From Elsinoe ampelina (lineage: Eukaryota), in assembly GCA_010093995.1 (NCBI GenBank), contig ML992501.1, forward strand, positions 454,227 to 518,226: 64,000 bases of DNA, read 5' to 3'. Below are positions 1 through 31,023 of the stretch, one piece after another; position 1 is the stretch's first letter, and each line of letters starts with the position of its first letter. The translations under genes and the position numbers were made by a program. The notes beneath the pieces were generated by a model. That model worked only from the letters and a program-made list of their open reading frames with translations. It was not told the DNA's origin and did no database searches.

Positions 1-3000
1 AATCGTGTCTAGATCGATATTAAATTTGCTATAATCTAGATTATAAAGGTTATTAAAGTAGATACTATTCTATATCTAACATTAAGAAAGAATATCTATA
101 TCTACGACTTAAGAAAGCCTAGTACTAGCAAGGACAAGAATTATTATATTAATTACTACATTAGTAAGCTTAGGTAGATCCTTAACATTAGAGGTAATTA
201 CCTCTAACTCTACTAGCTTGACGTATATAACTCTATATAAGTCTTTACTATTAAAGACTCTTTTAATCTAGACGCTACTATTACTAAGCATGTTATAACT
301 CTTATCTCTAGTGCCTATAAGATCTTTCTCTATCTTACTCCTTCTATAGTATCTATTAAAGATCTTCTTAACTTTATATAAAGTAAGTTTACCTCTTTCT
401 TATTTATCTATATATACTAATACTTATAGACAACTCTTATTAATATTATAGTAGCTAGTAACTATTTTCTATAGCCGAGGCTACTATAGAAGAGGACTTA
501 GAAGTGTTTCTTACTCCTAAGAAGCTTCGCTTTATAGACATTAATACTAATAAGAAGTATAAAGGAGATTAGTAGAAAGAGAATATTATAATATAGAACA
601 TTTAATACCTATAATAGCGACTAAACTACTAAAGGCAAGAGTAGTAATACTACTATATTTTATTTACTATTATATTATTTATAAAACTATTTAGTTCTTA
701 ACTAATAAAGTTTTATTTAGCTTATTCTACCTTTAAGAGGCTATAGCCTCTATAAATCCTACGATTTCTATTATTATTATTAGAAGTAAACTTGCTTAAT
801 AGTCCTATAACTATAGCTAGACGGATTTTAACTAACCTAGCGACTTAGTTTAGAGTATAGTTTTACTTTATATAGTTTTAGGAGAATGTAGCTCCTTCTC
901 TCCTACTAGAAGAACATAGCCTATTTAGACTATAGTATATACTACCGAGGCGCTATCTATATTTCTACTACTTTAATAGCTTAAAGAATATTATATAAGC
1001 TACTATACACCTAAGGCTAGCTATCTATCTAGATAAATATAATCTCTCGGAGCTCTCTAATATCTCTCCTAAGTTCTACTTTATTACTAGTAACTTTCTA
1101 TAGCTTACCTAGCACGCTATAATATATTAGAGCAAAGAGAGTAAGTCTAAGAAAATAACAACTTACTTCTACTAATATAAGATTAATATCGGCATTAAAA
1201 AAGTAATATATTCTTAATATTATTAACAATAGAAACAAAGTAATACTACTATAGATATAATAGACTAGGGCGTTTAATAATAAGTAAAATAAGTTAGTAG
1301 AATAGAATCTTATTCCCTATTATAGTAGAAGTAATAGTATAAGTTTTAGTTCTATACTAAACTTAGAGTTAACTAAATTAAATAAGAATAGTATAGTACT
1401 ATAAAGAAGCGTATAGGCATTACTACTAATATAGTTATTTGGCTTTACTCTTATATACTAGCGAGGTTTATACGTAGTATACTTAGAAGTTAATAAAGAA
1501 TTCCTACTAACTATTATTAGTTCTAGCTACTACCTCCTAATAAATAGTAGAGACGCTTTAGGTTAGGTTACGCCTCCTAACTAAGTATAAACTTAAGTTA
1601 GTTTAGTTAGTCTAAAACTAGAGACAAACTTATTTTATATTAGGGTAGATAAGTCCTTTAAGGGAATACTATAACGCCTAGCTATCTTATACCCCTCCTT
1701 GTTAAGTAATTACTACTCGGCATTAGCATAGCTCTACTAACTATATATATAGGTTTAGTATTAAGCTTAATATTTAATATAAGGTTAATTACACTAAGAG
1801 AAAGGAATTAGATATCTACTACTTAACGAAGGTAGCTTTAATATAGTAGAGCTAGTCTCTATCTATAGGCAGTAAAGACGTATCTATTATAAAGAATAAG
1901 AGAGGATAAACTAGACACAATTTAACTCGATATTACTATATAATATAATAAGAGATAGCTCTCTACCTATATAAAGGTAATATAAGAATAGTTAAAGCCT
2001 ATTATAGCCTCCTTTTCGTAAATATAATAGTCACTTCTTATTTCTAGTTCGAAATCTTCGTATTAGTCTCTATATAGATAGCTAGACTTCTATTTATTCC
2101 TCTTAATATATATCTTAACCTAATTATAAAACATCTAGTAGCTATATCTACTTTTATATCTTATTAGGTTCGAGATATTCCTAACTAGAACTCTAAAGTT
2201 TTAATTAAGAATAGATATCTTATTTCTTTAGTAGCACTATATATATAAATTACTTTACGTATAGGGGAGTATACCTTAACTACGATTATAGAGACGCTAT
2301 ATAGGAGAGAGTAGCACGGAATAATATTTATATTTAACAAGTAAAAGAAACCTAGAGGTAATTATACTAGATATTGTTACAAGCTTACTTTATTTACTCC
2401 GCTACCTTACTAGTATAGGAAGAGTAATAACATTAACTAATATTATAGTAGGAGCTATAGACACTCCTTAGACTTTGTACCTTAAGCTAAAGCAGTAGAT
2501 AAGTATATAGCTAGCGCTATACTAGATTAGGAATATAGAGCCTTCGTGTTATTATTCTTAAGATTATAGAATAGAAAGCTTATAGTTAGAAGACTAAGAG
2601 GCAGTAAGGGATTATTCGTATATATAACTCTATAGCGCTAGCGGTAGCTATAGTAGTTAGTTCGACTTAGTTAGTCTAGTTTAGTCGTCACTAATAAGAG
2701 AGCTATATCTATAATAACTTAAGAGAATTCTAAATAGCTAAGCTATTAGAATCGGTAAGAGCACTAAAGTTGTTATTGTTAATTATAGAGAGAAGTCTAT
2801 AGTAAGCTACGTAGGCATTATTAGAGTAGCTATATTAAAGTAAACTTACTTCGAGAAGGCTACGCTAGTTAGTTCGTAACTAGGAATAGTATATAGTTCT
2901 ATAATAAGTAAAGTACTAGTGCTTCTACCTTAATAGTATAACTTTGCTTAATACAAAGTTAGTATATAGATCTAATTATTATAGTAAGCTTCCGATAGTG

Positions 3001-3660
3001 CCTTAGAGAATATAACATTCGCTAGTATAGATATAATAATAGCGTTTATACTTAAGCCGACTATACTATTCTATCGGCTAAAGAAGTAAGTTAACTATAG
3101 CTATAATACACCGACGATAATATAGAAGGTTATATAAGACAATATAGCAAAGTAAACAAACTAAAAGTATAGTTGTTTAAACTAATAGAGGAGTAATAGT
3201 AAATTATTAGTTTATCCTTATTAAGATTAGTTAAGGGAACGCCTATAATTTTTACCTAAAAAGTACTAGTTTTAGTTTAGTAAACTAATTAACTACCCCT
3301 AATAGATTAACTATAGGCATAAACGACCTAACGTTATATAGCTAAAGTATCTTTATATACTACTATTGCTATTTTTTATAGAGGCTATTTATAACTAACT
3401 TATTATAATACTAGCGACAAGTTAAGATATAAGATAGCAAGAGCTATAAATCGTTTACTAGCTAAAATTATTATACCTACGCGGTACTCTCTATTTTATA
3501 ATTACTATAAAAGCCTCTACTAAGGATAATAGCGTAATAATAGCTAATTAAGTATAGTATTTAACATTGTCCTTAAGTAAGAGACAGCTAATAAACTCTA
3601 TTACCTAGATATATTAGAGTAAACTCTATCTTAATATATCTAGTACTATAGCGTAGATAC
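1..3660. pseudogene. RIP-destroyed intron-containing genes of unknown function (one + strand fragment, at least two - strand fragments)
   Basis: Fungal intron signatures survive: + strand GTAAGT(383)...ACTAAT...TAG(429); - strand donor/branch/acceptor sets at 1166-1117 and ~2849-2807. No family motif recognised. Confidence 0.45.
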
Positions 3661-3786
3661 AATTTTAGCTTTAGTTTATTAACGCTATATAATAGCTTAG
3701 TTCTATTAGCTCTACTACGAATTATAGTAAATAAGAACTAAACTAAGTAACGAGGTAGAAATAATAGCCTATAGCTAGTATAGAGT

Positions 3787-3978
3787 TAATTACGACTAGT
3801 AAGACAAGAGGTTAATTACGTCTATTTATTAAGATATCGAGACTTAGAAGAAGAAGAAGAAAAGCTAGTATACAAAGCACGCGTAATATCGAGAGCGAAG
3901 CGGCCGGAAGCCTAGGCTACGATGCCGAGATTACGTAATTAATCTAAACTGTATCTAGTTCGTATTTATCTCGTATTA
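3787..3978 (-). repeat. 3' LTR of element A
   Basis: TAATTACGACTAGT...TCGTATTA (RIPed TG...CA), matches 16833-17024 with transition differences. Confidence 0.95.
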
Positions 3979-3999
3979 CTACTCTCTCTCTTAAGTATA

Positions 4000-6900
4000 T
4001 TTACCCTTAAACGCTATTATACATTATTTATTAATCTATTTCGGCCTTAGCTTATCCGTATAAGAGTCTAGATAGTTACGTAGTACGTCGGCTACTCCTT
4101 TAAGATTGTTAATTAGCTACTAGGTAAGATTCTCCGGATAGCTCTTCTAGCTTATATAAGTAACTAACTTCCCTTATAGTAAGCGTATATTAATTACATT
4201 GTCTACTTTATACTTCTCTTTACTATCGACCTCTATCGGAGGTAGTTCTTTAAAGGCTTAGCCTAGTAAGAGGTTATTTAGATGTTTAGTAAGTAGGTCG
4301 GCGTAAAACACTAGGTAAATTCTTTATAGAGAGGCTAGCAAATCGAGCTTATATACTAGCGGTAATTGTTTCTTAAGGATCTTATAGGGACCTATATGCT
4401 TTAGTAGTAGCTTTAGATTGCCCTATAGCCGGAGGTTCTTCGTTAATAACTACACTAAATCGCTAGCTTTGAACTCTATTAGCTAGCGGTGTTTATTAGC
4501 TTATTCTACTATTCGTAACTAAGCAATAGCAAGGTTAGCTTTAGTAATAGCTAGTGCTTCTTCTAGTTGCTTAGCAAGTGCGCAGATGTCGACCTTATTT
4601 AGCTTAGCTCTTGTTAACGGTGCGTTAGAAGGAGGCTAGAAGCTTAGCCTTAGCTTGTATTCTCTAGTGACTTTAAATAGCGACAGTTTAGTACTCTCTA
4701 ATAGGTTAACGTTAGCGGAGAATTCTGCGACTAGTAGAATAAGTGTCTAATTACTAAAGCGTATAGCGTACGAACGGATAACTCGCTCGAACTTGCGATT
4801 TATGACCTCTAATTAGCTATCTATTTATAGATGCCCTATAGTAGACAGTTTAGTAGTAATCTTTAGGATTTAGTAGAGCCTTTTCTACACGTCGCTAACG
4901 AACTAAGAGCTATAATCCGAGGTGATACTATCCGGTAGACTATATAGTTTCTACATGTAGAAGAATAATAGCTTAGTAGTCTCGAACGCTAAAGTGCTAC
5001 CTTCTCTAGCGAAGTATAGAATTAAGTGCCGTTCCTTAGATAGATAGTCGACGACATAGAGTACTACATTGTAACTATCTACTAAGGGTAGACTAGTAAC
5101 AAAGTCTATAGTAATGTATTACTATAGTCTTACCGGAATAGGCAATAGCGATAGAAGGCCGGCTAGCAAGCTATAGTAAGCCTTTAAGCGCTTATAGTTA
5201 TAACAGTTAGCGACGAATCTCTTAACGTTAGGATTGTACCTAGGGATATAGAAAGTAGACTTAATTATAGTAGCTGTCTTAGTAGCTCCTCCGTGTGCGT
5301 AATTCTTCGATATATAGACTCCTTAGATAACTTTTGCAGCTATAGAGAAAGGCACGATTAATCGGCTAGTAGCGTATAGTATCTCCTTCTCGATTGTAAC
5401 ATCGGTCGACAGCAGCTATTTCCTCTTTAGGAAGGCCCCTATTATACAGTAGATGCCGCGAACTATTTCGAAGTCGAGGTCTTATAAGTTGGCTTTAGCT
5501 ACTTCGTCGAATAATAGTGAAGTTTGCTCTCCTAAGGTCGAAATAGGTGCTATATAGGTGCCTAGCTTACGAGCCGAAATAGGCGGCGAAATAGGTAGTA
5601 AAACAGGTAACGAACTAGACGGCGAACTAGTTCGCGAACTAGATACTAAAGTAGATCTTAGTTCGGCTTAGATTAGTAATCCAGTTCGGATGCGACCTAG
5701 ATTTAGTTCGTCGATAATGCGCTAATCTAGCACCTTATATAGTAGTAGCGTCTAGCGTAGATTAGAGTCTTCTTTCGAACGTAGTACGTCTCTATTCCTC
5801 CTCGTAAGTACGTCGGCCTTACCGTTAGCGGCGCTAGGCCTATATATAATCTTAAAGTTAAACTACGCGAGGTAGAGAGCCTAGCGCGCTTAGCGGCGCA
5901 ATAGCTTCTAAGTCTTTATAAAGTGTATTAAGGATTAGTAGTTAGTAAGAACGTAGATAGCTTTATCGGATTAAGTGCTTATAAGCTCGAGAGCCTACTC
6001 CTCGAAGGCTTAGACGATAGCTAATAGTTCCTTGTCGTAGATAGTATAGTTACGTTCGGCTTTACTTATAGATTTACTAAAGAAGGTAACAGGCCGGAGA
6101 ACGTTAGACTCGTTATATTATAATAGAATCCTAGTAGTAGTTGTGTCGGAGGCATCGGTCTCGATAACTACTTACTTCGAGCGATCGAAGTACGCTAAGA
6201 TAGAGACACTTATAATAGTATACTTTATATAGTTAAACGCGGTAGTACACTTATTATTCTATAGCGTAGTGTCCTTCTTAAGTAGGTTATTTAACAGCTT
6301 AGCGATAGTGCTAAATCCCTTAATAAAGCAGCAATAGTAGCTATAGAAACTAATAAAGCTTCTTACCTAAGTAGTATTACTAGAGGCTAGTTGTTTCTAG
6401 GCTTGTATAGCTTCGACCTTCTTTAGATCTATCTTAACTCTATCTCGACTAATAATAATACTAAGATACTTTACTTCTGTTAGGTAGAACTTACTCTTCT
6501 TAATGTTAGCGTTTAGGCCTAATTTATAGAGCTATTAGAGTACTAGCTTAATATGCTTAGCGTGCTCTTAGCAAGAGCTATCGATGTAAATAAGAATATT
6601 ATCGAGGTAGATTAATATAAAGCGCTCTAGCATGTCGACAAAGTTATAATTTATAAACCTCTACTACACTATAGAGGCGTTAGTAAGGCCGAATAGTATT
6701 ACTAGCTACTTAAAGTTACCTATGTGTATAGAGAACATAGTAAGGTCTTCGCTATTAATAGAGTTATAGAGGTAGTAGAAGGCTTAGTAGATGTTAATCT
6801 TGCTAAACTATTTAGCTTTACTTACGCGCGTAAGTGTCTCTTTAATAAGGGGTAGTAGGTAGACGTCTCGTTTAGTTACCTTATTAAGGCCGTAGTAGTC

Positions 6901-8130
6901 GACGTAGAGATAGAGTCTTCTACCTAGCTTGCGAATAAAGAGAATAGGCAAGAAATAGCTAGCTAAGCTTAGCGTAATAAAACCCTTATTAAGGTACTTA
7001 TAGATAAATAGCTCTACTATATTAAGCTTCTCTAGTGACAGGCAGCGAAGGGGTTTAGTGCGCGGCAGTTTAGCGCCGTCTTTAAGTGTAATACAGTTAT
7101 CAAAATCTAGCTAATGCTAAGGGAGCGTATTAGATTATTCTTTAGAGAAGATATTAGTAAACTCTCGTAGTTCCTTAGGTAGGACTACTATAGGGTCTAG
7201 CTCTAGTTTAGAGGCTAGCTAGCAGTAATCCTTAATGTCCTTTACTAAGATAGTAAAAACCTTATTCTCTTAGTATTTAGCTACCGATATAAAGGCAGTA
7301 GCGCCGATAAAAGTAATAGTCGGTCCTTCTTATTTAGCGTTACTTACGTAGGTAAGTACGTAGAAGAACTTATATATTAACTAAGTGCTATAGGAGATTA
7401 GCTTAAACTCTCCCTAATTTAGCTTAAAGTTCGACCTAAGAGCTAGTAGCTAATATAGTCTAGTTCGTCCTAACTTAGTAGCTAAGCTAGAACTTAGTTT
7501 ACAAGTTAGACTAGAACCGAACTAGTCCTAAACTAGAGTAGTAGCTTTACCGAGCTAGATTTCTAGATCTAAGCCGGGCTTAGATCTAGATTCTAGCCTT
7601 TTAATTAGCTACGGCAGCTTCTACTTAACAACCGTTAGTAAAAACTCTTCTTTGTATATGACTCGGCTATGCTTATAGTCGATAGTAGCCCTATTAGCCT
7701 TAAGCTATCCGAGGCTAAGGATAATATCGAATCGGCCGATATCTATAATATAGAAGGTAGTAAGGTTATTTAGCTTGCTAGAAATAGTAGTAGTAAGAGG
7801 GACGCTATAAGTGACTTGTTCTATTAGGACACTATTATAAGCCTAAAGCTAAATAGAGCTAGCTAGTACTACGGGGCAGCTAAAGCTCTTTAGCTTGTCG
7901 AGAACGTTATAATTAACTACGGCGCTAATAAGCGCGCTAGTGTTAATAAAGGCTTAAAGTGTAATAGTGCGCGAGCAGTTATAAGGGTCGTAAATAGTAA
8001 TAGGAGTTATAATAGCAGGGATATAGTAGCTAACAATGCTATTTAATAACTATATACCTCCGGATCTATCTTAAATTACTCTTGTTCTACTAGAGAATAG
8101 GACTTATCCTCCGGCTACTCGTTTCTCTAG
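4000..8130 (-). pseudogene. pol of element A (protease, RT, RNase H, integrase, chromodomain)
   Basis: De-RIPed minus-strand motifs: IYLD(N/D)ILIY ~6612-6586, ETDASD ~6165-6147, DFVTGLP ~5106-5086, GPYKIL ~4392, chromodomain EEYEVDNVI..SWKSYPENLTW ~4220-4120. Ends approximate. Confidence 0.9.
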
Positions 8131-9480
8131 CCGGATAGGTCGGTAGACTTATAATCTATTTCGGGGTCGAACTAAGGCTAAACTAGATCTAGTTCGTAAG
8201 CCGAACTAGTATCGACTTAGTTACTTAATTCGGCTAAGCGTTCCTAGAGCTATTATATCTCTTCTACGGCGCTAATACGTATAGGGCATATAGTAGCGTA
8301 AGTAGCCTTCTCTAAGGCGCTAGCTATATACTTAGTAGAGATATAGCTAGGCTTACTACATGCGTAACAGGTAAGTGCCTAAGTTAGACAGAAGAGCTAT
8401 AGGGCTCCTCTAGTAATAGAGTAGAAGGTAGCTAGAGTAGTAGGTATAGAGGTAGAATAAGGTACGCGAATTAGTGCCGTAGTAGTATAGCTTATAACCG
8501 GCCTAGTATATAGGGCTTAAGTACGCTTAGTAATAAGGTTGCTCTACTAAATGTTATAGTCGGTAGTATAAGCCTTTATAATAAAGATAGAGAGGTCGTT
8601 AGTATCGAAGTTAATAAGAGCAATACGTAGCTTGTTAGATATCTTCTAGCGTAGCTAGTAGAGCTATTTATCCTTAGCAATCTTAGTGTAGAGGGCGTAC
8701 TTGTTAAATTCGCTAATAAAGGAGTCGAAAGAGGCGTTATACTAGAAGAGGCTAGCGAACTAAGCGCGCGTAGTAGCCTTACAGTTTAGATCCTCGAAGC
8801 GCTAGGCTAAGAGGCTAAGAGTAGCTTTAGCGTTAAGAGTGTCGTTACCGGCGGAGTCTATAATAAGAGTATATACTTCGCTAGAGAGATGCGAATAGAG
8901 ATAGGTAAACTAAGTAGCCTCGGTAGAGAAATAGTTAGCGTTAGCGCGTATCTTATTCTTTATCTAGTGCTTAAAAACCTTAAACTGTTCTAGAGTTGCC
9001 GCTAGAGAAGATAGTAGAGTCTAGTATCTTCTCTAACAATATAACGCTACGTGTAGAAGAGGCTAGTATAGCGCGTCCTATCTTAGCTCTTAGCTAGGCT
9101 AGTTCGGTTTTAAGTTTGCTAATATTAGCAAGGTAGCGCGCGGCCTAGGTAGTAAGATTGTTAGCGGTACTATTAGCTATATCTAGTTTAATAAGGACGT
9201 TATCTAACTAGTTATATAGGTTAAGAGTATCGGTATATACTAAGTTATATACGGTAACCTATTTGTTATAGGTAGACTCGACGAAGGCAAAGGCCTTATA
9301 TAGAGTAGTTATACCGTCTATCTCTTATAGCCTCTTCTTAAGGTTAGTGTCGCTAAGGCGAATAAGGTCGTAATAGGCTAATTAGACCGGTTTATTATTA
9401 TTGTTAGCGGAGAGTAGAGGAATCTTACTTACGTAGCGATTGTCTTTGCTATAGTTAGAACGAGCTATACTTAGCGTAGT
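8115..9480 (-). pseudogene. gag of element A
   Basis: Zinc knuckle C-Y-A-C-(G)-K-P-(G)-(H)-I-S-T-K-(C) at ~8369-8328; lies upstream of pol. Start approximate. Confidence 0.8.
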
Positions 9481-9623
9481 TAGTCGTAAATAAATAGTGT
9501 AAAAAGTCAACGCGTAACAAAGGGAATATTAAAAATTTTAGCCGGCAGCCTACTTCCTTTAAGAGTTATCTATAACTCGACTTATTACTCTCTTCTTATA
9601 TCTTTAGGGTTCGTAGTATTAAC

Positions 9624-10087
9624 TGTTATAAACTAGTAGGACAAGCTAGAGCGTAGGAACGTTAGGACTAATTAAACTACTAAGGTTATTACGTAATCTA
9701 GCCTAACGTTTACCTAGTTCTCTATCTTCTCTAGCAGCTCTACCCTAGAGACTATAGAGCGCGTAGGTTACTAGCGGATATGTACTTTGTCTTCTCTAGC
9801 GGCTCTACCACGGAGTATATAGAGTATATAAGGTATATAGTAAAGAATATATATATATAGGAATAGTCCTTACCTTATATAAGTACTATAGTTAACCTCG
9901 TCTAGATAGCGAACACTAGTATTACTAAGGCTAGCCTTTATAATACTATCTAATTATACTTTATTATCTATAAGACATACCTTCTCTAACTCTTACCTTA
10001 GTACTATACTACTATAGAAGTAGAACTACCTCGTTCTTAGCTTAGCTTAGACTACTAACGTAAGCTATATTTAGACAGTTCGTGACA
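9624..10087 (+). repeat. 5' LTR of element B
   Basis: TG...CA termini; near-identical to 16183-16646; internal duplicated TCTTCTCTAGC(A/G)GCTCTACC; TATATAAG at ~9876. Confidence 0.95.
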
Positions 10088-10203
10088 TTTTAACTACCCT
10101 TACTATAGTATAGCACGCTACGAGGTTAATAAGTAACTCTTGCTCTAAGTTACTATTAGCATCTTCGATTACTAGTAAGCTAGGAAAGCTTACTATTAAC
10201 GAC

Positions 10204-12192
10204 ATATCTACTACTAGTTTAACCTCGGGCAAGTATAGAAGGTCTCTTAGTATAAGAGAGAGACGGAGTAGGCCTAAGTTAGAGGTAGAACTCTTCTATA
10301 GGGACCGCGCCTACTTAAGGCGCTTCCTTATTTAACTTAAAGCCTTCTTTGCTCTAGAGAGAGATAAGTACGCTAACGACGTAGCAAAGGTCCTCTATAC
10401 CGGGATACACCTTAAAGGCGCCGCCTTTAGGTAGTTCGAGCCTTATATAAGTAGCTACCTAGATAGATAACTAGGCCTAGATATAAAGGCTATCTTTAAG
10501 AGCTTTAGCATCTTCTAGGCAAAGATTAAGCAAGTCTTTAATGTATCTAATAAGGAACGCGTCGCTATAACAAAGATCTAACAACTATAACAACGTAGGT
10601 CTATAGCCTAGTACTACTCCTAGTTCTAATAACTTGTAATATACCTAGACTAGGATAATAGTGCTAAACATTTAGTATTCTACTAAGGACTAAGCAACTT
10701 AGTTAAGAACTAAATAATACCTAAGCCGCCTAATAGCCTCTAAGAACTAGTAGATACTATAATTACTATTAATAACTAACTTTATAAACGACGTATAGAA
10801 CGTTATAGAGGATATAAGGTAAACACTAGATACACGCGTTCCTCTCGAAACTATAGAGACTCTATAGAACTTAACGCTATACGTAAAGGTTGCCTCTTAT
10901 AAGTATAAGGCTAAAGTTGTAAAGGAAAGTTCCTTAGTAGAAAAGAGAGAGAGAAGTATAGACGAGACAATCTATATTTTAAGTGTAAAAGACCTAGGTA
11001 TCGAGCTAGGGACTACTAATAAGGGGCGCTAGCCGATAGATTATATATAATAGTTGCCGGGCTAGTAGAGAAAAAGGCTAACACTACTATAGAAGACTTA
11101 ATAACCTTTAGCGTAGGTAAGGAAATATAGAAGAAGTCTATAACGACTTAAGAGGTAATAGAATTCTCTCTAGATATTATACTTAATATCTCTACGACTA
11201 ATAGCGAATAATAAAGCTAATACGTAACGCTATTATAGATAGTATATTATAATAACTCTTGTTATATTTACTTGTTAGACAAGTAGGGATCTAGTTAGTT
11301 TCTATATAAGCTATCTAAGTATAGGCAACTAACGAAATAGCTAGACTAGGAACCTAACCTAGAAGAGCTCTCTATAATTAGTAGTAACATTAACTAACCT
11401 TAGAAGGTAGTTAGCGACAATTACTAATATACAATTATTAAGATAAAGTATTAGGACGCGAGTATTATATAACAACATAGTAGTCTTACCTTTAGCTCTT
11501 ATAGTAAACTATAAGGAAAGGTATATTATATGTCGCTCTAGAAATGCACAAATCTAGATTATAAACAGTACTATACTATTTACTTACACGATGTACTTAG
11601 AGAAGAAGCTATTAGTCTTAAATATACTATAGACTTCTTAGTAATTAAAATAGGTAGTACTATTCCCTATAGCTAAGTACGGGAATATACTTAGTATAGC
11701 CTTACTAACTATAACTATGCTAGGGGTAGTAGCGACGAAGAGAAATACAACAAAGAATACACTAAATAACTATAATATAATAACATAGATAAAGACTTAT
11801 CTAACAATAAAGACAATAATATACTACTACTAGGCGGACGACTTAAGGCATACCTTATAGGGATATAGAGAAACTATATAATAATATACACCTACTACTA
11901 GAATAGAATATAATAAGATAAATCTACTTAACTTGCGTTTGTCTTTAACGCTAATACCTAGCTACACCCGGAGGGAATAGTTATACTAGTATAGGTATAT
12001 AACACTACTCGGTGTAACTAGTAGAGAATTATTAGACTTTATAGTTATTAAGGAACGTAAGTACCGGAAGTTTACCTCGCTATATTAAACAACGACAAAA
12101 CACAACTTACCTAATAGATATAGTACTAATAGTAGATACATATAGGAAGGGATTAGCTACTTATCTAAGGAGCTATAATAACAAAAAACTAG
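10204..12192 (+). pseudogene. long gag ORF of element B
   Basis: One frame from RIPed ATG (ATA, 10204) through zinc knuckle (C)FKCxRP(G)(H)RARD(C) at 10975-11016 to AAA AAC TAG at 12184-12192; AAAAAAC slippery site at 12183-12189. Confidence 0.85.
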
Positions 12193-16832: not shown

Positions 16833-17024
16833 TAATTACAACTAGTAAGACAAGAGGTTAATTACGTCTATTTATTAAAATATCGAGACTTAGAAGAAGA
16901 AGAAGAAAAGCTAGTATACAAAGCACGCGTAATATCGAGAGCGAAGTAGCCGGAAGCCTAAGCTATAATACTAAGATTATGTAATTAATCTAAACTATAT
17001 CTAGTTTATATCTATCTCGCATTA
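16833..17024 (-). repeat. 5' LTR of element A
   Basis: Matches 3787-3978; followed by TSD AGAGT. Confidence 0.95.
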
Positions 17025-17424
17025 AGAGTGTCCTTTCTCCTTTACCTACTATATAGTATAGTATAGTAGATAATTCTCTTAGTCTCTTTACTAACTTTAA
17101 CTTTTAACCTCTAGCACGTAGAACAGATAGTAATAGTAATAGTAGGCTTAATAGTAACATATATAAGAAAGAGAAGGGTATAGACGAGGTTATAATAGGA
17201 AGTATATATAAGAAAGAGTAAGTAATTATAGTAAGTATAACTAGTAGTATATCTATAGAGCGGAGTACTAGAAGGTTATTCTTATTTAGTAGAGCTATAT
17301 CTAATTATACTATGTTCGAGATAGTAACTAGTATACTAGCTAGTAGCGAGGAGTTAGTAATAGACATAGTTTATTCTTAGTTTATATTAACTAATCTTAT
17401 CTAGATCTCCCTAAGTCTATAATA
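17025..17424 (+). repeat. Dispersed repeat (continues 3670-3786 across element A) matching ~24365-24875
   Basis: AGAGTGTCCTT...CTAAGTCTATAATA aligns base-for-base with 24476-24875; similarity continues left of element A at ~3670-3786. Confidence 0.9.
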
Positions 17425-17800
17425 TATTCTTTACCCCGAGCAATTAATAAGATATAGCTTAGCTAGGGACTCTTAGCTTAGCGCTCTAATGTTTAATAAA
17501 AGGCAAGCTACTAACTTAGATAGATAATTTTAATTCGAGTTAGGTCGTTATAGTAGAAGTACCTTCTAGTAGAATACACTTACTATAGACTACTAGCCTC
17601 TATATAATGTTCTAACAAATCTACTTCTACCTACGTAAGAGTACTAAAGATATATCTAAGTTACATACGCGAAGGCTATAGTAGTCTAACTAATAGCAAA
17701 ATAGTGTTTACTAGTAGAAAGCTTACTTAGCTTAAATTTAGTAGTGTAAATTATTACTTTACTCTATCTCTAGTATATTATATATAGTAATAGTAGAGAG

Positions 17801-18100
17801 TAGCTAGTAGAGGACAGCTAGTAGTTTATTACGTTAAACTAACAATTTCTTAGTTCTCTCTCTTAAAGTTTAAAGATAATTTAAAATTTTAACTTAACTA
17901 TAGCCGGCAGGGGATAGCTAGTAGTTTATCGCGTCGAACTAATAATGTTTTAGTTCTCTCTCTCGAAGTTTAAGAATAATCTAAAATTTCGACCTAACTA
18001 TAGCTAGTAGGGGATAGCTAGTAGTTTATTACGTCGAACTAATAATGTCTTAGTCCTCTCTCTCGAAGTTTAAGAATAATTTAAAATTTTAACCTAACTA
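17801..18100 (+). repeat. Tandem repeat, 3 x 100 bp
   Basis: Units start at 17801, 17901 and 18001 (TAGCYRGYAG...AACYTAACTA); differences mostly transitions. Confidence 0.95.
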
Positions 18101-20099: not shown

Positions 20100-23000
20100 T
20101 AGGAAGAATATAAGAATACCTATATAGTTCTAGGACTTAAATATAAAGAACCTTAGGATAGTAACGTTAATATAACTATAATTATAAATAACATTAAAAC
20201 TTCCCTATAATACTCTTAGGATAACTATACGAAGATCTTCTTTTAAAGACTATACTATTAAGACTAAGACTAGTTTAAGAGAAATATTAGAAACTATAAT
20301 AATATATCTAGTTATAATATTATTAAAGATTTTGTCCTTACTATTAAGGTATAAGAGCTTAGGAATAAGAAGAATTAGACTAAAGTAAATAAGAAGGCTT
20401 ATCTTAAGAAGTATATTAGAAAGCGCCCCTCTACTACCTAGTCTAATAGTAGACTCTCCGAAAGATTAGAGACTTCTATACTTAGTAGCGGACTTATAGG
20501 TATAGATATTAATTACTATACTAGTTAGCCTATATATTAGTAGTAAATGCTAAAGGACATGTCTTATCTAGTCTAGAGCATTATTAACAAAACTATATTA
20601 ACTTTATAATTGTTAAGTAATTAGATATTAGCCTAGGCATAATTATAAAGAGAGGATGTTTATATTATCTATAGGTATTTAGTCTAAGAATTTTAAAGTT
20701 ACATCCGGGGGATTATAATTTAAACGTATATAGCCTTAATAATATTAGGCTATTCCTAAAGGAGAAGAAGTTAGTTAGTAATAATATTATCCTTATATAG
20801 ATAGATTATATAGAGCTATATAACATCCTACCTATCTTAGATAACTACGACCTATATACTACTATAATTAACTATATTAACTCCCTAGTTAAAGGTAGTA
20901 ATATAATCTTTATCTATCTTATGCCTAGTATAGATCTAGTTAAGAAGCTCCCTAAAGAAGTACTTTATAAGTTTAATACTTAGTTCGACTTAGGTATATA
21001 CTAATATACTTAGTTAACTCTCTTTAGTATTGTAATAGTTAAAAGCTATTAACTCTAGTCTAGGAGAAAGAGGAAGAGGAACTTCTAGCCCCTCTATCTC
21101 TAGCTAAGCGCCTACTACTACGTAAACTTACCTCTAAGAAGTAACTTAGCTCTCTACTACCTAACAAGAATAATACTACTATTAACTATCGTCCTACTCA
21201 GGTAATAGAAGACAAATACTATAAGTAATACTAAGATAGCAATTAGTATCTCTTTATAATTATGCCTAGTAAGGAGCGAGTAAGGTACTATATTCTATTA
21301 GTCTCTAAGATACTATCTATACCTATTCTAGCGCTTATAACTTATATATTTAATAAGACTCTTAGTAGCTCGGACTTTGTTAAACTTTATACTATAAACA
21401 ATAACAATAACAAGTAAACTAGTAATAATCTAGCTAACTAAAGCTTTATCCCTATAGGCACTAGAATTAATTACTAGTCTAAAGAGTTCTAGGAGAGAGT
21501 CTATAACTTTATAAGCTTTAAGAAAGATATCTACTTACCGAACGCTAGTATATAGTATTTTAGTTAGAACAAGAAGTATCTAGTTAAGGTAGTATAGATA
21601 TACTTAGCACTTATTATACTTAAGAAATACCTCGAAGGCTACCTAGTATTTATATTTATATATAAGATAGAATTTAGAAAGACTCTAATAGAACTCTTCT
21701 TTCTCTTACTAATTTAGAACTTAAATAAAAAGGTTATCTAGGATACTAACTATACTACTATACCTAAGGATAAGTAGAGTAAGTACCGAAAGGCAAAGAT
21801 ACTAGTTAACGAGCTATAGCTAGATATCGCTTCTATAGATACTATTAGCTATAATCTAATTGTTAGCGGATTAAATATAATAAAATAGTAAGCGTAGGAG
21901 ATATAGAAGTTTATACCTAATATAAAGGTTATTCTATGCTAGGGAAGAATATTCTAAGCTATATAAGAAGACAAGTATAGTAACATATATAACATAGATA
22001 CTTTAATTTATAAAGAGGATCTACCTATAGGCTACTACTAATAGGAGTCTTAGCTAATAGATAAGTCTAGTAAGCCTATTAATACTATTATAGTCTTATA
22101 ACTAGTTAATATATATAAGTAACACTCTTAGACCTTATAGATAAATAATTAGTTCTTCTTTACTACTTATAACACTATAATCTACTACTTCCTTAGTAAG
22201 AACAATATAAATACTAAGGATTAGAACTTTGTTTCTAAGAGATAAAAGAGAAAGCTAGGGTCTACGCCTATAAACTAGGCCGCTGTTATCTTTAATAAGT
22301 TCTATTAGGTTACTAGCTAGAAGACGTAGACCTAGTATTATCTAGGAATACTACTAGAGAGGCTTTTTATACTAGGTATAAGTAGGACACTATTTGTTAA
22401 GTGCTTAAACGTAGTAGTGTTCTTAATAGCGGCTATATATAAGAACTTTAGATTAGAAAAGCTTAATATAAATAGAAGTAAAATAGGAGAATTAAATAAG
22501 AATTATATCTATAAATCTAAGTAGAAGCTAACTAAAACTAAGAATAATAAATGTTAAGTAACACTAAAGACAACACTAGATAAGACTTAATAAGCTATTA
22601 CTAATAAGCTTAACTTCTAAATAGTATTAGACTATACCTTCGTAATTGACAAATAGTATAAGGCAAATAATAACCCTAGTAAGTTTAATAAAAAGGAAAG
22701 TATATAGTTTATAGAAGAGATTATAGTAATAGTTAGTAAATAAGGTACTATCCTTATAAACATTCTTATTAAGATAAATATAGACTATATCTAGAAACCT
22801 TTTAATATTACTTCTAGTCTACTAGCTATTAGAGTTCTACTATATTCTACCTTCGACCTAGAAATTGCTATCGAGAATAAGTATCTTTATAGTCTTATAA
22901 ATATATAGAAGAAGATTAAATAGAATATAGATAAGAGTATATAAGAGGCAATTAACAGGTAAAAGGACAAATCTAATAAGCCTAAAGTAACATTAGAGGT

Positions 23001-23905
23001 AATCCTTAATAAGAAGACTAAGGAGTAAATACTAAGCTTAGTTATACTACTACTACTTTTCTCTATATTTCTTGCTCTTATAGATATATTCTAGAATAAT
23101 CCTATAGTTATAGAAGAGTTTAGCAACTTTACTATTAAGTTTACTTATAAAATTATATATAACTTCTTAGAGATAGTACTATAGTAGTATATAGATAAGA
23201 TCTATACTAGTCCTTAGATAAAGGTCCTTTATAGTGTTATTTCTAAGATTATTAAGTAGAACGTCTCCTATTTAAAGGAGCTAAAGAGGTAAGTAATTGT
23301 CTATATATTTACACTATTAGTGCTAGTAGTCGCTATAATAGTTAGTTCGGTCTATTTAGTCTATTTAGGTTATTACTAACAAGGGTATAGTATCTAAAAT
23401 AGCTCGAGAAGCACCTAGATAGTAAAGTAATTAGGATTAATAAGAATACTAATGTAGTTATTATCTACTATAGAATAATATCTATACCTGCCTATATAGA
23501 CATCGTTAATATAGCTATATCTAATAATACATTTATTAAACCTAATAGGCTAGAAGGCTTAAGAATCTTAATTGCCTAGGGTAGAGCTATTAAGACTAGT
23601 CTTAATCTAAACCGCTTCGATACTATAATCTTACTCGATATAGTATTAGTATTACGATCCGTCCTTTAGTATCTAGCTTAGGTCTATAGAAATATTAAGT
23701 CTTAGAAAGCTAACTATATAGAGGCGTTTATAATAAAGCTAATAGCTCTATTCTATAGGCCTCTAGAATAGCTTAATAGTAGATAGAGTAGGCTATTAAT
23801 AATATAGAAGATTATCTACGAGGAAATAGAGAAGTAGAGGGCAGAGATCTAGAAACTTTAATGAGCTATAGCGAAGAAGAACATAATTGTTATAGATAAT
23901 AATTA
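20100..23905 (+). pseudogene. RIP-destroyed SNF2-family helicase/ATPase
   Basis: De-RIPed motifs in order: Walker A (H)(E)(M)(G)F(G)KT at 21661, Walker B AAVIF(D)(E)F(H) at 22279-22305, motif III G(M)S(G)T(P)F at 22375-22395 (same frame); after a probable intron (~23384-23457), motif V T(G)LNL at 23595 and motif VI (Q)YLA(R)V(H)R at ~23667-23690. 5' end approximate. Confidence 0.8.
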
Positions 23906-24721
23906 AGATTACTAAATAATAGTTTAACTATATTACTTAAAAATATAATTCTTTAGTTTAGTAGACTAATTTAGTTCCCTATATATATTAAACTATCTTT
24001 TAGGTTACCTAATATAATATAGTATCTAAACGTTTCTTACTTTCTACTATTGCTAAAATTTAGCTAGCTAACTCTAACTACAAATTTAGATCTTAAGTAA
24101 TAAACACAAATATACTAAGGCGAATTAGTAAATGCTCGGCCTATAGGAAGATTATATAATCTAGTAGAGGCCTTGTCTAATATCTACTATATTACTAGAG
24201 AAAAGAGCTACTAATAAGTAACATAGTATAAGTCTTACTAGAGTAACATAGCAATAGACATCTACGTAGAGATAACGCTAGTAATAATCCTTACTTATTT
24301 AATAAGGGAGAGTACTTACTATCTAATAAAGGCTAATAAGGTAGTATTACTAGTAATACACGATATAGTTCGCTAATGCTAAATAACCTACTAGTCTACT
24401 TTACTCCGCTACGAATAACAGTAACTAAGAATTAAACTAAACACTAGAGTAGAAACGAAAGTCTATAGCTAGCGGAGAGTGTCCTTCTCCCTTTGCCTAC
24501 TATATAGTATAGCATAGCGGATAATTCTCTTAGTCTCTTTACTAACCTTAACTCTCGACCTCTAGTACGTAGAATAGATAGTAATAGTAATAGTATACTC
24601 GATAGTAACGTATATAAGAAAGAGAAGAGCATAGACAAGGTTATAATAGGAGATATATACGAGGAAGAGTAAGTAATTATAGTAAGTATAACTAGTAGTA
24701 TATCTATAGGGCGGAGTACTA

Positions 24722-27649
24722 GGAGGTTATTCTTATCTAGTAGAGCTATATACGATTATACTACGTTCGAGATAGCTACTAGTATACCGGCTAGTAGCGA
24801 AGAGTTAGTTATAGATATAGTTTATCCTTAGTTTATGTCGACTAATCTTATCTAGATCTCTCTAAGTCTACGATATATATACTAACACTAACGATAAACT
24901 AAATTATAATTAGTTAAGCGAGACTTAACTAAAGTAAGCCTTTATTAGCGGTATAGACATAGGTCTTACCTAATAGCTTATAAAGGAGAAACTTAGTAGA
25001 GCTATAATTACGTAATTACTTAAAGACCTACGTATATAACCTTTAGTAGAGAGCCTTAGTTAGTAAACTACGAATAAACTAATAAAGAAGATAGAGAATT
25101 TAGATACGGGCGAGAGTATTAATAGCTAGTAGACCTCGAGCTTTATACTAAACACTAATTATAGGCCTAAAAGACACATGTTCTAGTATCTAGATATTCT
25201 TATAGTAATATACTTCTTGCTTAGCTATTATAGTTTCGTAGTAGACATAGACTATAGCCTATATAGAGTCTTTATAGAAGCTATCGAGAGTAAGCTACTA
25301 CAATAAGTATATACTAAAATAGTAAGCGGTAACTAGTAGTAGAATATACAAAAGCGACTTAGGATACTAGGGGCTACTATTATCCTATTAATTGTCGTAA
25401 GTAATTAGACCTAGGTAATAAACTATTAAGGAGATCTTATAGCACATACTATCTATCTATTATTAGGCAACCTAAAGGTAGAAGCATATAATAGTAACTA
25501 CTAGCCGGGGTAGTTACTAATTAGCTTACTTTCTATTATTAAAGATAGTAGTAATATTGTTAAGGAGAAGACCTACTATACTTATATAAAGAAAATCTTT
25601 AATGCTATTATTAATTGCTACTTAAGAGAGGGCGAAATAATCTCCTATATAGATAGAAAGAGGTAGAGGTGCTTCTCTATACTTACTACTATACCTATAG
25701 ATTACGCCGAATAGGTTACTATAACTAGTATAAAGTTACTATATTATTATATAAGTTGCCTAATTGGTAAGGACAAAAGAGAGAACCTAGTAGTTACTAT
25801 ACTATTCTAAACTTACTACTCTACGTAGTAATAATAGCGCTTATAGAGAGAAGTACATAAGAGTTAGTAGTAGGGCAAGAAGATAGATATAAGCTCTTAA
25901 GTTTATATAGTTAGTTACTTTACGTAGGATCTTCTATATACTAATATTTACTATGTAATAGTGCTAGATATTCTATACTAACTTCTTAAAGGCGTTTTAA
26001 TATATATCTTACACTAGACTTAAAAATTGCTCTAGGATTTAATACCTATATAGAGATTACTACGGTATATAAAGGCTAGAGAGACTATATAGCAAATAGG
26101 CTACTAGCGCTCGGCAAAGAAGATTATACTTAATATTATTAATAAGTGTTTTAATAGTATACTAGTGTTTCCTAGCATTTAACACTTCTTATACTACTTA
26201 GCTATTAAGCAATAGACAGGTTAAGAGTAGAAGAGTATTGTACACTAGATACTTCTAGTATTTATACTACTACTTAAGGAAGTTAAGGCGCCTTAAGCTA
26301 TTAAGTTTATACGCGTACTAGTCGACTTTATATTACTAGTAAACTATAAGACCTACAACGACGATATACTCTAGTATATTAACCTTGCGCTCTTTAGAAT
26401 AAATAAGTATAAAGAAATCTTCTAGGCCTATTATAGTAATAGGAAAGAAAAGAGCAACTTTAACTTTCTAAAATAGCACTTAATAACATATTTTTTAAAG
26501 GCTATTTATAATTTTAGAGTAGTTACTAGCCTTAATTCTAATCATTTAGAGTATAATTATATATACTTTATTAAGGACGCCTTTAAACTTATAAATAAGA
26601 AGGCTAGATAGAAAGACTAAGTTACTACTTATAACACTAAACTAGTAAATATGTTAGTAGTATTCGATAACCCCTCGAAGTTAGTTAGGCTATTAGCTAC
26701 TAAACTAATTAAGATCTAGAGTACGCTAGTTAGCGTAAGTAATATAGTAAATATTACTTCTTAGTTCGGCTAGCCTAGCGCTAAGAGAGGAGCTATATAG
26801 CATATAGTAAAAGAACTAGAGGCGCTTATTAATATACTACCTAGGCTATTACTATAGTAAGTAATAGCAGTATTTATCTACGAGGCTTATTAAGGTATAG
26901 CCGATATAGGCTCTAACTCGAGAACTAAATACTTTAATTAGTTTAATGCTAAACTAGATCCCGATAGACTCGAACTAGATTCTTTCTAGGTAAGTAACCT
27001 CTACGTTAAGTTCTACTATTCTTTAAAGTGTAGAAAACTATCTAACTATAATTCTAATAATCCTAATATAGACAAATAAGACTTTATCTAGTATATAACT
27101 AAATAGCAAAGAATATATAGCAATAAGAGGCAAGACTAGCTCTAGGTATAAGAATAGACAATAAATAACAAAGGCACTAATAGAGTATTACCTAATAGCC
27201 TATAAGGTAAGTTACTAGCTTATATTATATTTATAATAACTATAGAGAATAGCTTCTAGTCTAGTAGATTAGGCCGGCGTTAACGCCTATACTACATAGA
27301 AGCGCTAGTAGATCTATATTAGCTTACTCGGCCGGATAGAGTAGCTAATCGAGAGTATAGTATAACACTAATTAAGCCTTAGACAAATCGACACGCGTAA
27401 GCTAGATAGAACACTCTTACTAGTAGGTATATCTACTTTACCTCGTAAATCTACTATAGTATCTACGTTATACTAGTAGATAAAATAAGACTATATAGCT
27501 AGATATATATTAATAACATAGCTAACTTTAACATATATAATATACTATAGAATAAGTTATAGGAGTCTAAATAGCTCTACCTAGCTAAGGCTTTAAAATA
27601 AGAGAGGTTAAGATCCCTAGGTATAGTTAGTAAGCGTAGTAGGCATTAA
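24722..27649 (+). pseudogene. RIP-destroyed Plavaka-family transposase (CACTA/EnSpm-related)
   Basis: One frame with de-RIPed YTEMASGDWWWNIQ (TAG TAG TAG at 25334-25342), GATIIPLIVASDQTQV..GD..A..IYL.LGN, VPDILHQLLKGV ~25961, ID..F..MP.FPGI.HF, QWTG.EQK, FNFPKWH ~26459, SEH.HI.FIKDAF..TNKK. An acidic N-terminal part probably extends to ~24370. Confidence 0.88.
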
Positions 27650-28079
27650 TAAAGCTAGAGTACTTCTTTTGTAGCTAGAACAATTATCTCTTACATTAAT
27701 AGCCTAACACTTAGGTATACTTAGGTTAACTACTAGACTATATTAAGTAAGTAAGTTATAATAACTTCCGTAGGTATTACTCTAACTAGTTAGTTTATAC
27801 CTATATATTATTAGGTTAGTCCCTAAACTATATAGGGTTTATAGCCTAAGGTGCCTTATATAGTTTTTACACTAAAGAGTTAGTCTATTTCTTTACTAAT
27901 TATAATAGCTTAGAAAATTATAGTAAGGCGTTATAGAAGTTAGTCTTTAAGATACTTAAGATATACTCTAAGTATTTAGTAATAGTAGTAAAAGGCTTAG
28001 GTTAGTAAGTTATCTTTAGGTTAGTTTCACTAACAGAGTTAGCGGTCTAAGAGGAAAGTTTATTCTCTATAATAAGTTT

Positions 28080-29850
28080 ACTAATAAGACTCTAATATAG
28101 ACGATAGTACTTTACTCTATTTACTATTATATTATAGAGATCTACTCGATACTACTAGAGTAGTTACTAAGGACTTATTCCTTTCTATCTAATAGATAAG
28201 ATCTATAATAATACTAGCTTAAAAGACCTACTAGAGAATATTCTTGTTAATCTCTATATATATACTATACATAGGAAACAAGTTAAGGAAGAAGCTACTC
28301 TTTAGTATAGTAAGTAGCCTCTTCCTTGTCCTCTAAAGTCTCCTCTATATCTATATAGGTTATAAGTATTTCCTTATAAGATTATTAGTACATAATATGT
28401 ATATAATAAATCCTATCTATAAGATTATATACTAGATTATTCTACACGCGCTATTACTATAATTACTACTTAGTAGTAGTAATAGTAGAGTAGTAGGATA
28501 TAGTAGGAAAAAGTATTATTATACTTACCTCCGAGAGAGAAATATTTTCTTTCTCTCCTATACCTTTCTCCTTGCTCTCTACTATAGTAAGGTATACTAT
28601 AACCGAAGCTACTACTACTACTTCCTCCGTAACTACTATTACTTATATATAGCTATAACTACGAGTTATTACTAGAAGCTTAGTATATATCGAGGTAATC
28701 TTATCTTTAATATATAGTAATAAAGTGCTACGATCTTAACCCGAATACTGCCTCTATTACCTCTCCGACAACTACTATAACTAGTGCCGAGAGCTAGTAA
28801 AGTAAGAAGCGTACTACCTCTACCTTCGCTAGTGTCTATAGCTATGCTAGTATTAAGCTTAGTAAGGTAGAGGAGAAGAGTAAGAAGCGGAAGAAGCTTC
28901 TTATTATTACTAATTACCTCCTTACTAATAACCTTATAGATAGGTAGTTAGAGTAGATCTTAAACTTTCTAGAAAGAGTATTTACTTCTTTACTATAACT
29001 ACCTTCGAGCTATTATTTAGACTACTATATCCTTAGTACTATCTCCGGAGCTACTTAGATACTATACTAATGTCTATTGGACTTTACTTTTCTAGGTAGT
29101 CTTTTATAGCTCTAGAATTATTCTTCTAGTAGATATACTATTCCGTGTTAGTAGATAAGGAATTAGCTTAGCCTAAACTAAATGTCTATTACATTTCTCG
29201 TACCTATCTATGTTAGTGTTAATCTTCTTAGAATAGGCTATAGCCTTACTACTATAGCTACTATTAACATAGTATATTTAGCTTCTATTATTATTCTCTT
29301 TCTACGTTACTAATAACTTCTAAGTACTAGAACAGGTCTATAGGTATTTATACTCGATGTTATAACTATACTTAGCTATAATAATTAAGTCCTTCTTAGG
29401 AAAAGCTTTCTTATATCTATAAGCCTAAGTTATAAATGCTCCTTTATAAGCTTATTTTACATTATTAATAATATAGGCTACTAGATAGCAGAACTTATAG
29501 GCTATAGAGCAATAGAGGTGCTTTTCGTTAGTGTTAATCTTTGTTACTAGCTATATAGTTACGCGAAAGTGCTTGTCTTTAGAGACATCTAATACCTTAA
29601 TAGACAACTAAGTAGAGATAATAAAATAGAGTTAGAATAAGTATATATTAGTTTAGGGTTTTATGTTATAAGCTAGAGAATAAGGCGTATAATATCTACT
29701 TTCCTATTATAGTAAAAGCACTTCTATACTAAGCTCTAATAATATAGAGTATATGCTTCTCCTTTATCTAGTAGATAAGATCTATAATAATACTAGCTTA
29801 GAGAGCTCTCTCTAGAAGATGCTTATTAATTTCTATATCTATTCTAGTTA
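28080..29850 (-). pseudogene. RIP-destroyed unknown gene(s) sharing a duplicated segment
   Basis: 28181-28262 and 29760-29841 share GATAAGATCTATAATAATACTAGCTTA; minus-strand de-RIP reads EIDxxxLxxxxQAGIIxDLIHQM in both. Confidence 0.45.
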
Positions 29851-31023
29851 TAGCAAGTAGAGCGTTTATCTAATCTAAGGCACGTATAGTACGTTTAACT
29901 AAAATTAGGTAGGTGCGGTGCGTTTATAGTAACCTAACATAGTTAAACTTAGTTTAATATAGAGAAACCTAATATTTTAACTTTCTATGCTTAGGACTTT
30001 TATAACATATTTATTATATTATACTTATTTCTCCTTATATATCTAGAAAAGTACTAAGAAGTTAACATTTACTACTTCTAGTCTCTAAGGCTTAGGGAGC
30101 CTCTCTAGTTTAATAGTCTTCTAAGGATTAATAAGGTTCTATATCTTAGTGTTTAATACTCTTATCTTAATAATATATAGCTAGCTAGCCTATTTAGCTA
30201 ATATAGCAAGAATAATAGGTGTTCTAGCTATTAAGGTGTTAGTATCTATAGTTGTTTATCCCTTTATTAACACCTAAATCCTATAGTAATAGTTAAGGTA
30301 GTTCTTAATAGATTCTAATACTTAAAAAGCAAGATAGTAGAGAATTAACTAATAAATAGAGTAGGAAAGCAACTAAGTAATATACTTGTATAGGGGTAGT
30401 TATACCGGGCTTATAACTATTAACTTATATATAGGGAGGAAAAAGGATTAATTACTACCTAAACTACTAAAATAAGGTAGATTATAACTACATAAATACT
30501 TAACCTAGTGTACTAAAAGATAGCTAAATCAAAAGAACTCCTTAATAGTAGCAGATTAAGACAATAATTATCTAATTTAATCATGGATTAGTAAAATGGT
30601 AAGATAGTGTTCAGTTTAACCTTGGGATGAACTGAATCAGGGTCTTCTTGGCGCTCCAGCTTATGCCTCGGTTGACATTGCTCGGGATCATCCTTCCCCC
30701 GAAGATATTAAAAGCTACTTCTCTCCTCATTCTCCCAACGGGAGACCCCTCCCGGACCTGCCTTTGGATTTCTCGAAATGGCAGAACTACAGATATCGCG
30801 TGCATGATGCTTTCACTTTCCGTAAGTCTTGCTCGCTTGGAAACCTTGCCGTCGTCGGCGGAAAATTGTGGACCAAACATGTCACTTTTGCCCATGCCCT
30901 GATCTTCGTCCGTGACCTACGCTATGCCCTGACGCGGTGATATAGTTGCCAGCCCTCCCTGTAAGTTGATTCTGTTCACCCCCGCTGTCAGTCCACTGGA
31001 GAGAATCGAGGCTGGAAAGTACC

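Follow-up and report, generated by a model that had tools for sequence, protein, structure and literature searches.

We analysed a 64,000-nt stretch of the genome of Elsinoe ampelina (assembly GCA_010093995.1, contig ML992501.1, positions 454,227 to 518,226 of the forward strand), which we call the window and in which positions are counted from the first letter. Its first 30.6 kb form an AT-rich block with a content of guanine plus cytosine (GC) of 25-41%, compared to 50-61% in the remainder, and no open reading frame (ORF) of 100 amino acids or more is found in 1-30.5 kb. Judged by its sequence, this block contains a Plavaka-type DDE transposon that has been mutated by repeat-induced point mutation (RIP). 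Its transposase gene is still recognizable, a SNF2-like helicase gene probably lies upstream of it, and part of this arrangement is present a second time. A preliminary description of the locus had proposed one giant transposon with several cargo genes. The features that bear on the transposon itself are the following:

24872-27640, plus strand: relic of a Plavaka transposase, a single reading frame of 923 codons with 81 stops (Pfam, phmmer, tblastn)
21490-22434, plus strand: probable relic of the N-lobe of a SNF2-like ATPase, 315 codons with 30 stops (RIP-tolerant alignment)
23679-23807, plus strand: probable relic of the end of the C-terminal lobe of a SNF2-like helicase (RIP-tolerant alignment)
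27641-30510, plus strand: RIPed 3' region with a direct repeat (28153-28287 and 29732-29866), no Pfam match

A six-frame Pfam search of the block outside its retrotransposons (positions 1-3788 and 17025-30602, stops read as X, E ≤ 0.01) detected no family except Plavaka. The preliminary description had named a Plavaka transposase, and family PF18759 indeed matches 25070-25999 on the plus strand with an E-value of 4.2e-21 and 75.9 bits against a cutoff of 26.3, spanning positions 4-317 of the 325 in the model. The several intron-bearing genes of unknown function that had also been described were not found in the six frames. A phmmer search of 1.84 billion representative sequences with the transposase relic returned 501 matches at E ≤ 0.001, the best at 1.5e-87, and Plavaka is the sole domain carried by the leading matches. 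Plavaka proteins of 905 and 963 amino acids align nearly end to end in one frame, with residues 5-892 of homologue P0003 contiguous. When homologues P0002-P0030 were compared to the window by tblastn, 28 of the 29 queries matched and all matches fell inside 24983-27640, so the window holds a single transposase copy. The N-terminal ORF of the transposase at a related locus (L002, residues 146-326; see below) aligns from 24872 onward. A word-based protein search with a piece of the RIPed transposase gave no match. Among the named relatives, hypothetical proteins from Pezizomycotina are nearest, namely those of Polychaeton citri, Aureobasidium pullulans, Chaenotheca and Sclerophora, and agaricomycete proteins are further from the transposase of the window than these. 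One gene model of Aureobasidium pullulans (P0157) has both Plavaka and Piwi domains and probably represents two adjacent genes fused by annotation. Because 81 of the 923 transposase codons are stops, the locus is dead, and it has no evident effect except that it places an AT-rich block beside a gene with a GH79 domain.

Intact relatives of the transposase came from a scan of metagenome contigs, for which four transposase homologues were aligned as the query. The scan yielded four loci (L001-L004) with a GC content of 51-54%, whose transposases are 41-48% identical to P0003. At all three loci that extend upstream of the transposase (L001, L002 and L003), a homologous ORF precedes it on the same strand at a distance of about 0.6-1.7 kb. 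In L003 this ORF encodes 1335 amino acids and matches Helicase_C above the Pfam cutoff (3.3e-8) and SNF2-rel_dom below it (4.5e-5, 23.1 bits against a cutoff of 24.9). The upstream ORF of L001 is the C-terminal end of an SNF2-like gene, again with Helicase_C above the cutoff (1.6e-6), and the upstream pieces of L002 match the ORF of L003 in tblastn at 8e-13 and 6e-6. Neighbours of the L003 protein in the ESM Atlas are fungal SNF2-rel_dom/Helicase_C clusters with a top score of 0.96, and a PDB search with the same protein gave weak Rad54-like matches; a word-based protein search with this ORF returned only itself. Since the gene order is kept in all three relatives with upstream DNA, the comparison supports the view that the SNF2-like gene belongs with this type of Plavaka transposon. 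Tandem arrays lie immediately upstream of the SNF2-like ORF of L003 (2704-3287). Positions 4076-5787 of L001 and 1-1711 of L004 overlap with 99.2% identity over 1.7 kb. L004 carries a 326-nt direct repeat downstream of its transposase (1377-1697 and 2551-2875), which has an analogue in the window at 28153-28287 and 29732-29866.

An SNF2 ATPase had been listed for the window in the preliminary description as well. Plain tblastn of the SNF2-like ORF of L003 found no match in the window, and we therefore wrote a RIP-tolerant protein-to-DNA Smith-Waterman alignment in which codons can be read as any reversion of TpA to CpA or TpG, with scores lowered by 1. As a positive control, the transposase reached a score of 1170 compared to 46 for the reversed protein and 544 with ordinary BLOSUM scoring. 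Residues 519-848 of the L003 protein aligned with 21490-22434 on the plus strand at a score of 78, whereas 40 shuffles over the whole search space had a mean of about 52 and a maximum of 67, and 48 reversed controls reached at most 56. Motifs of L003 appear in the window in altered form (GVGKT as EFRKT, DEFH as NKFY and ISGT as ISRT), and these changes are mostly, though not all, of the RIP type. Residues 135-173 of the upstream ORF of L001 aligned with 23679-23807 at a score of 51 (30 shuffles: mean 35.1, maximum 43). From the N-lobe match, the C-lobe was predicted at about 23698 and was seen at 23679, so that the two SNF2-like matches are collinear with the relatives. We regard an SNF2-like relic in the window as probable from these alignments. 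The ATPase of the preliminary description thus finds backing in the RIP-tolerant alignment of the relatives' gene and none in direct Pfam or tblastn matches. RIP-tolerant searches with further ORFs (L001 1552-2262, L003 8371-8901, downstream in L004 and upstream in L003) raised only N-terminal pieces of the transposase above the controls. No non-coding similarity to the relatives was found in the 5', spacer and 3' regions of the window.

The region upstream of the transposase is present twice. We refer to the copy that adjoins the transposase as copy B and to the one on its left as copy A:

1-3786, plus strand: left piece of copy A, a RIP-degraded and diverged counterpart of about 20585-24475 (SNF2-like region and spacer) that leaves the window at its left edge
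17025-17427, plus strand: right piece of copy A with high identity and a sharp right edge at 17427 (BLASTN match to 24476-24878)
17428-21489, plus strand: RIPed DNA between the end of copy A and the SNF2-like relic of copy B, no six-frame Pfam match
24420-24878, plus strand: high-identity block of copy B, counterpart of 3730-3786 and 17030-17427 (BLASTN, alignment)

BLASTN aligned 17025-17427 with 24476-24878 over 403 nt at 88.3% identity without gaps, and the high-identity block carries on leftward into 3730-3786, across the insertion of a Gypsy retrotransposon. Further left, collinear matches connect 410-466 with 20994-21050, 2502-2836 with 23186-23521 and 3036-3156 with 23718-23838. In a diagonal scan of 1-2500 in purine/pyrimidine space, 70 windows of high identity fell within the expected band of offsets, compared to 2.1 expected, and the offsets climb steadily (20584, 20638/9, 20656 and about 20684). 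Overall, DNA from position 407 or earlier to 3786, continued by 17030-17427, is a second copy of DNA from 20991 or earlier to 24878. The homology halts sharply at 17427 and 24878, within 6 bp of the start of the transposase homology at 24872. Sequence to the right of 17427 shows no resemblance to sequence to the right of 24878, and no signal of a transposase N-terminus encoded in the 455-bp block was obtained. In the alignment of 17030-17389, 316 of 360 positions are identical, with 40 transitions and 4 transversions; the 354 columns of the alignment of 2502-2850 comprise 223 identities, 84 transitions, 40 transversions and 7 gaps. The duplication was scored strictly, by best-hit collinearity and diagonal scans. 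A duplication over 7 kb, suggested by a lenient transition-tolerant alignment, was rejected as an effect of near-linear-phase scoring. Tandem arrays with units of 100 nt (17780-18127) and 184 nt (18421-18813) are present, so that both the internal duplication and the tandem repeats of the preliminary description are borne out. The stretch 17428-21489 may be the 5' part of copy B; the arrays at 17.8-18.8 kb, similar in placement to those of L003, give a weak hint that this part begins near 17428.

The two pieces of copy A are separated by nested retrotransposons with long terminal repeats (LTRs), as had been described for 3787-17029:

3787-17024, minus strand: outer Ty3/Gypsy element with LTRs at 3787-3978 and 16833-17024 (192 nt, 92%)
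9626-16648, plus strand: inner Ty3/Gypsy element, inserted in the outer one, with LTRs at 9626-10089 and 16185-16648 (464 nt, 92%)

On either side of the outer element stands the 5-bp target duplication AGAGT (3782-3786 and 17025-17029). When stops were read as X, Pfam detected RVT_1, RT_RNaseH and Integrase_H2C2 in a minus-strand frame of 4501-8997 for the outer element and RVT_1 (1.6e-19), RT_RNaseH_2 and Integrase_H2C2 on the plus strand of 12003-14999 for the inner one. The flanks of the inner element, AACTG at 9621-9625 and AACCT at 16649-16653, form an imperfect 5-bp target duplication; either the edges of the LTRs are off by 1-2 bases or the site has mutated.

RIP is usually called from a high TpA/ApT ratio together with a low (CpA+TpG)/(ApC+GpT) ratio. 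Throughout 1-30600 these ratios are 1.56-2.34 and 0.14-0.62, respectively, and in 30601-30800 they turn to 0.57 and 1.43. At the resolution of 200 nt, 30401-30600 has a GC fraction of 0.26 and a (CpA+TpG)/(ApC+GpT) of 0.40, and 30601-30800 a GC fraction of 0.49 and a ratio of 1.43. The boundary can be entered as one further feature:

30520-30620, no strand: zone in which the RIP signature ends (200-nt window indices and reading of the sequence)

Both indices and the nearly transition-only differences between the copies in 17030-17389 mark the block as a RIP-affected repeat. After removal of 3787-17029, the RIPed DNA outside the Gypsy elements amounts to 3786 + 13481 = 17267 bp, deeply RIPed up to about 30.5-30.6 kb, which agrees with the 17.3 kb of the preliminary description. 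The Gypsy elements have a GC content of 31-41% compared to 25-32% for the rest of the RIPed block, in agreement with the order of nesting. The linked direct duplication of at least 3.85 kb would alone be sufficient to draw RIP onto the duplicated parts. Since the 5.6 kb to the right of the duplication is equally deeply RIPed, the pattern suggests that further copies of the element were once present elsewhere in the genome.

The right end of the transposon had been placed at 30510. TAACCTAGTG can be read at 30501-30510, near the point where RIP fades. However, within about 30.7 kb we counted TAGTG 33 times and CACTA 36 times, which is the chance level, and by our own arithmetic the chance of a TAGTG no more than 100 bp from the RIP boundary is about 1 in 5. 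Given this abundance, the motif is uninformative about a right end at 30510. The left terminal inverted repeat that should accompany it was not found in the window: a search of 1-30000 for an inverted partner of 30100-30900 scored 38.5 at best, within the 37-43.5 of shuffles, and inverted repeats of at least 80 nt were not detected in purine/pyrimidine space. The left end may lie outside the window or may have been erased by RIP. A pairing of 30510 with the CACTAG at 24442, the only one upstream of the transposase, was rejected because only six bases match and the site lies inside the homology of copies A and B; the triplet that precedes it is AAA and the one that follows 30510 is TAC.

On balance, the block is probably, if by no means securely, the remains of a RIP-inactivated two-gene Plavaka transposon in one whole and one partial copy, split by nested Gypsy elements. 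The element would belong to the Plavaka lineage of CACTA/EnSpm-related DDE transposons, and its transposase gene would be preceded on the same strand by a gene for an SNF2/Rad54-like helicase. Copy B would comprise both genes, with the SNF2-like gene at about 21.5-23.9 kb, a spacer, the transposase at 24.87-27.64 kb and a 3' region up to about 30.5 kb; with its 5' part probably within 17.4-21.5 kb, the element would measure about 10-13 kb. Copy A, directly to the left, would be diverged and limited to the SNF2-like part and spacer, and breaks at 17427 where the transposase would begin. A Gypsy element would later have entered copy A, followed by a second Gypsy element that entered the first. 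RIP would have been provoked by the linked duplication plus additional copies elsewhere in the genome. The positions of the ends and the membership of the SNF2-like gene in the mobile unit are what we infer from this arrangement. As the 17.3 kb contain the same module twice, once in full and once in part, they cannot be upheld as a single unit. What stands of the proposed large DDE-type cargo element is the Plavaka transposase and the order of the SNF2-like and transposase genes in three of three relatives; the SNF2-like gene is the sole extra gene and the only "cargo" seen, and it looks like a conserved partner rather than captured cargo.

Several observations weigh against this reading of a two-gene transposon. 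The six-frame Pfam search matched neither SNF2 nor Helicase_C, and plain tblastn was negative, as mentioned above. The RIP-tolerant score is home-made, and a reversed control reached 70 for one low-complexity query; by the same alignment, copy A gave no protein-level SNF2 signal. Both the ends of the element and its mobility as a unit are putative, and none of the metagenome contigs described here spans both element ends. Furthermore, the divergence of copies A and B is uneven, with about 11% transversions in one alignment compared to 4 of 360 in the other, so that a simple two-copy or tandem history is inadequate; gene conversion or a history in two steps are our guesses. An insertion of copy B into copy A would have left the remainder of copy A to the right of copy B, where it is absent.

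Other explanations of the block have to account for the same edges. A single giant element that runs from before position 1 to 30510 without the Gypsy elements, with CACTA-type ends, an internal duplication and several cargo genes, seems unlikely to us. It would agree with RIP that is uniform over the block and halts within about 100 bp of 30510, with a left end that could fall beyond the window and with the SNF2-like and transposase genes that do go together in relatives, and red algae are known to have Plavaka elements that carry accessory genes and measure 17.4-19.1 kb (bioRxiv 10.1101/2025.02.11.637652). However, at least 3.85 of the 17.3 kb are a second copy of the SNF2-like part, and only two genes were found. 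The end at 30510 is a chance-level TAGTG that has no inverted partner in the window, the triplets before 24442 and after 30510 disagree, and the ends of fungal Plavaka elements printed in the accessible part of PMC12730594 are other motifs. If the block were instead a pile-up of repeats, a Plavaka element with a transposase only (about 24879-30510) would lie beside two copies of an unrelated repeat with an SNF2-like pseudogene. This would explain why the homology of copies A and B stops within 6 bp of the start of the transposase homology and why copy A holds the repeat without a transposase, and a CACTA is present at 24886. Yet the order, strand and spacing (about 0.6-1.7 kb) of the SNF2-like gene and the transposase are kept in three of three diverged relatives, and an insertion into copy B predicts that sequence resembling 17428 onward follows 30510, where none was found. 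We consider such a pile-up improbable.

We attach still less weight to a third LTR retrotransposon inserted just upstream of the transposase, with LTRs of about 455 bp (3730-17427, interrupted by the Gypsy elements, and 24420-24878) around an internal region of 7 kb. The repeat itself (403 nt at 88%, gapless, with nearly only transitions, a sharp right edge and a distance of 7451 bp) would suit a pair of LTRs and resembles the LTR pairs of both Gypsy elements. However, reverse transcriptase, RNase H, integrase and gag are absent from the six frames of 17025-24878, although the same method detected both Gypsy elements, and tblastx showed no similarity to either of them. In addition, the homology extends beyond the block by about 3.3 kb on its left side, and the supposed internal region has the SNF2-like relic at the same distance from the transposase as in the relatives. 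With neither gag/pol between the 455-bp repeats nor tblastx similarity to the Gypsy pair, we rejected this possibility as very improbable.

Compared to known systems, the two-gene transposon favoured here differs from Starships, which are large multi-gene mobile elements of Pezizomycotina with a DUF3435 tyrosine recombinase as captain and are often RIPed. No DUF3435 match was obtained by the six-frame search of 1-3788 and 17025-30602, in agreement with the preliminary description, although a captain to the left of the window would have escaped this search; a DDE transposase is found in its place, and no diverse cargo was seen. With CACTA/EnSpm transposons the element shares a related transposase clade and subterminal repeat arrays. 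The CACTA...TAGTG ends and 3-bp target duplications of that group are not demonstrated here; the motif at 30506-30510 is at chance level and lacks an inverted partner in the window. Of the CACTA-type element that had been proposed, the Plavaka-type DDE transposase remains, and the CACTA-type ends find no support.

Multi-gene and giant Plavaka elements are already in print, as seen from excerpts of PMC12730594 and bioRxiv 10.1101/2025.02.11.637652. Fungal Plavaka comprise PlavakaA and PlavakaB, which form the CMCT clade with EnSpm/CACTA, and some of those in Agaricales carry a TET/JBP gene (Kojima 2025, PMC12730594, in the text available). They resemble the element of the window in the PF18759 transposase, in their EnSpm-related DDE cut-and-paste mode and in an extra gene beside the transposase; this gene encodes TET/JBP there and an SNF2/Rad54-like helicase here. 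The families printed in the same excerpt are from Agaricomycotina, whereas the nearest named relatives of our transposase are from Pezizomycotina. PlavakaA ends are given there as TGT..ACA with 2-bp target duplications and PlavakaB ends as CATCA..TGATG with duplications of 2-3 bp, while CAC..GTG ends with 3-bp duplications are ascribed to EnSpm families (PMC12730594). Neither TGT..ACA nor CATCA..TGATG was found as a matched pair in the window. The giant Plavaka of red algae (17.4-19.1 kb, accessory genes PAG1-3; excerpts of bioRxiv 10.1101/2025.02.11.637652) are likewise large; their transposase adjoins conserved accessory genes, and they contain tandem arrays. Their accessory genes are described in these excerpts as DNA methylase/SET, ParB-like/2OG oxygenase and an unknown protein, and none is SNF2, unlike in the element of the window, which would also be shorter at probably about 10-13 kb.

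The SNF2-like protein may have acted in chromatin remodelling at the donor or target site, in repair after excision or as an anti-silencing helper. We propose such a helper role from the analogy to fungal Plavaka with TET/JBP and to red-algal Plavaka with their accessory genes. As the known accessory genes of Plavaka encode DNA- or chromatin-modifying enzymes, an ATP-dependent remodeller would fit transposons that manipulate host chromatin or silencing. To us it appears about evenly balanced whether a Plavaka lineage in Pezizomycotina has a conserved second gene that codes for an SNF2/Rad54-like ATPase of its own; if the gene is a standing part of the lineage, it would be a new class of accessory gene for DDE transposons. 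The pairing of an SNF2-like gene with Plavaka was not found in the literature searched. The consulted portions of PMC7473861, PMC12730594 and bioRxiv 10.1101/2025.02.11.637652 do not mention an SNF2-like partner of Plavaka, and those of PMC10799480 deal with SNF2 without Plavaka. For annotation, the locus implies that a RIP-dead gene hidden from Pfam and BLAST can be recovered via the intact relatives of its neighbour gene and a RIP-aware alignment.

To the right of the block, the GC-rich flank carries an intact host gene:

31024-32637, plus strand: gene of 537 amino acids with a GH79 C-terminal domain (ORF; Pfam Glyco_hydro_79C, 2.3e-15)

Further along, a tandem array with a 7-bp unit lies at 33363-33543. 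A run of 35 N (33436-33470) breaks it and points to an assembly gap within a microsatellite. The GC-rich gene region also has an inverted repeat (36627-36810 and 37829-37996), about 184 nt long with 71% identity.

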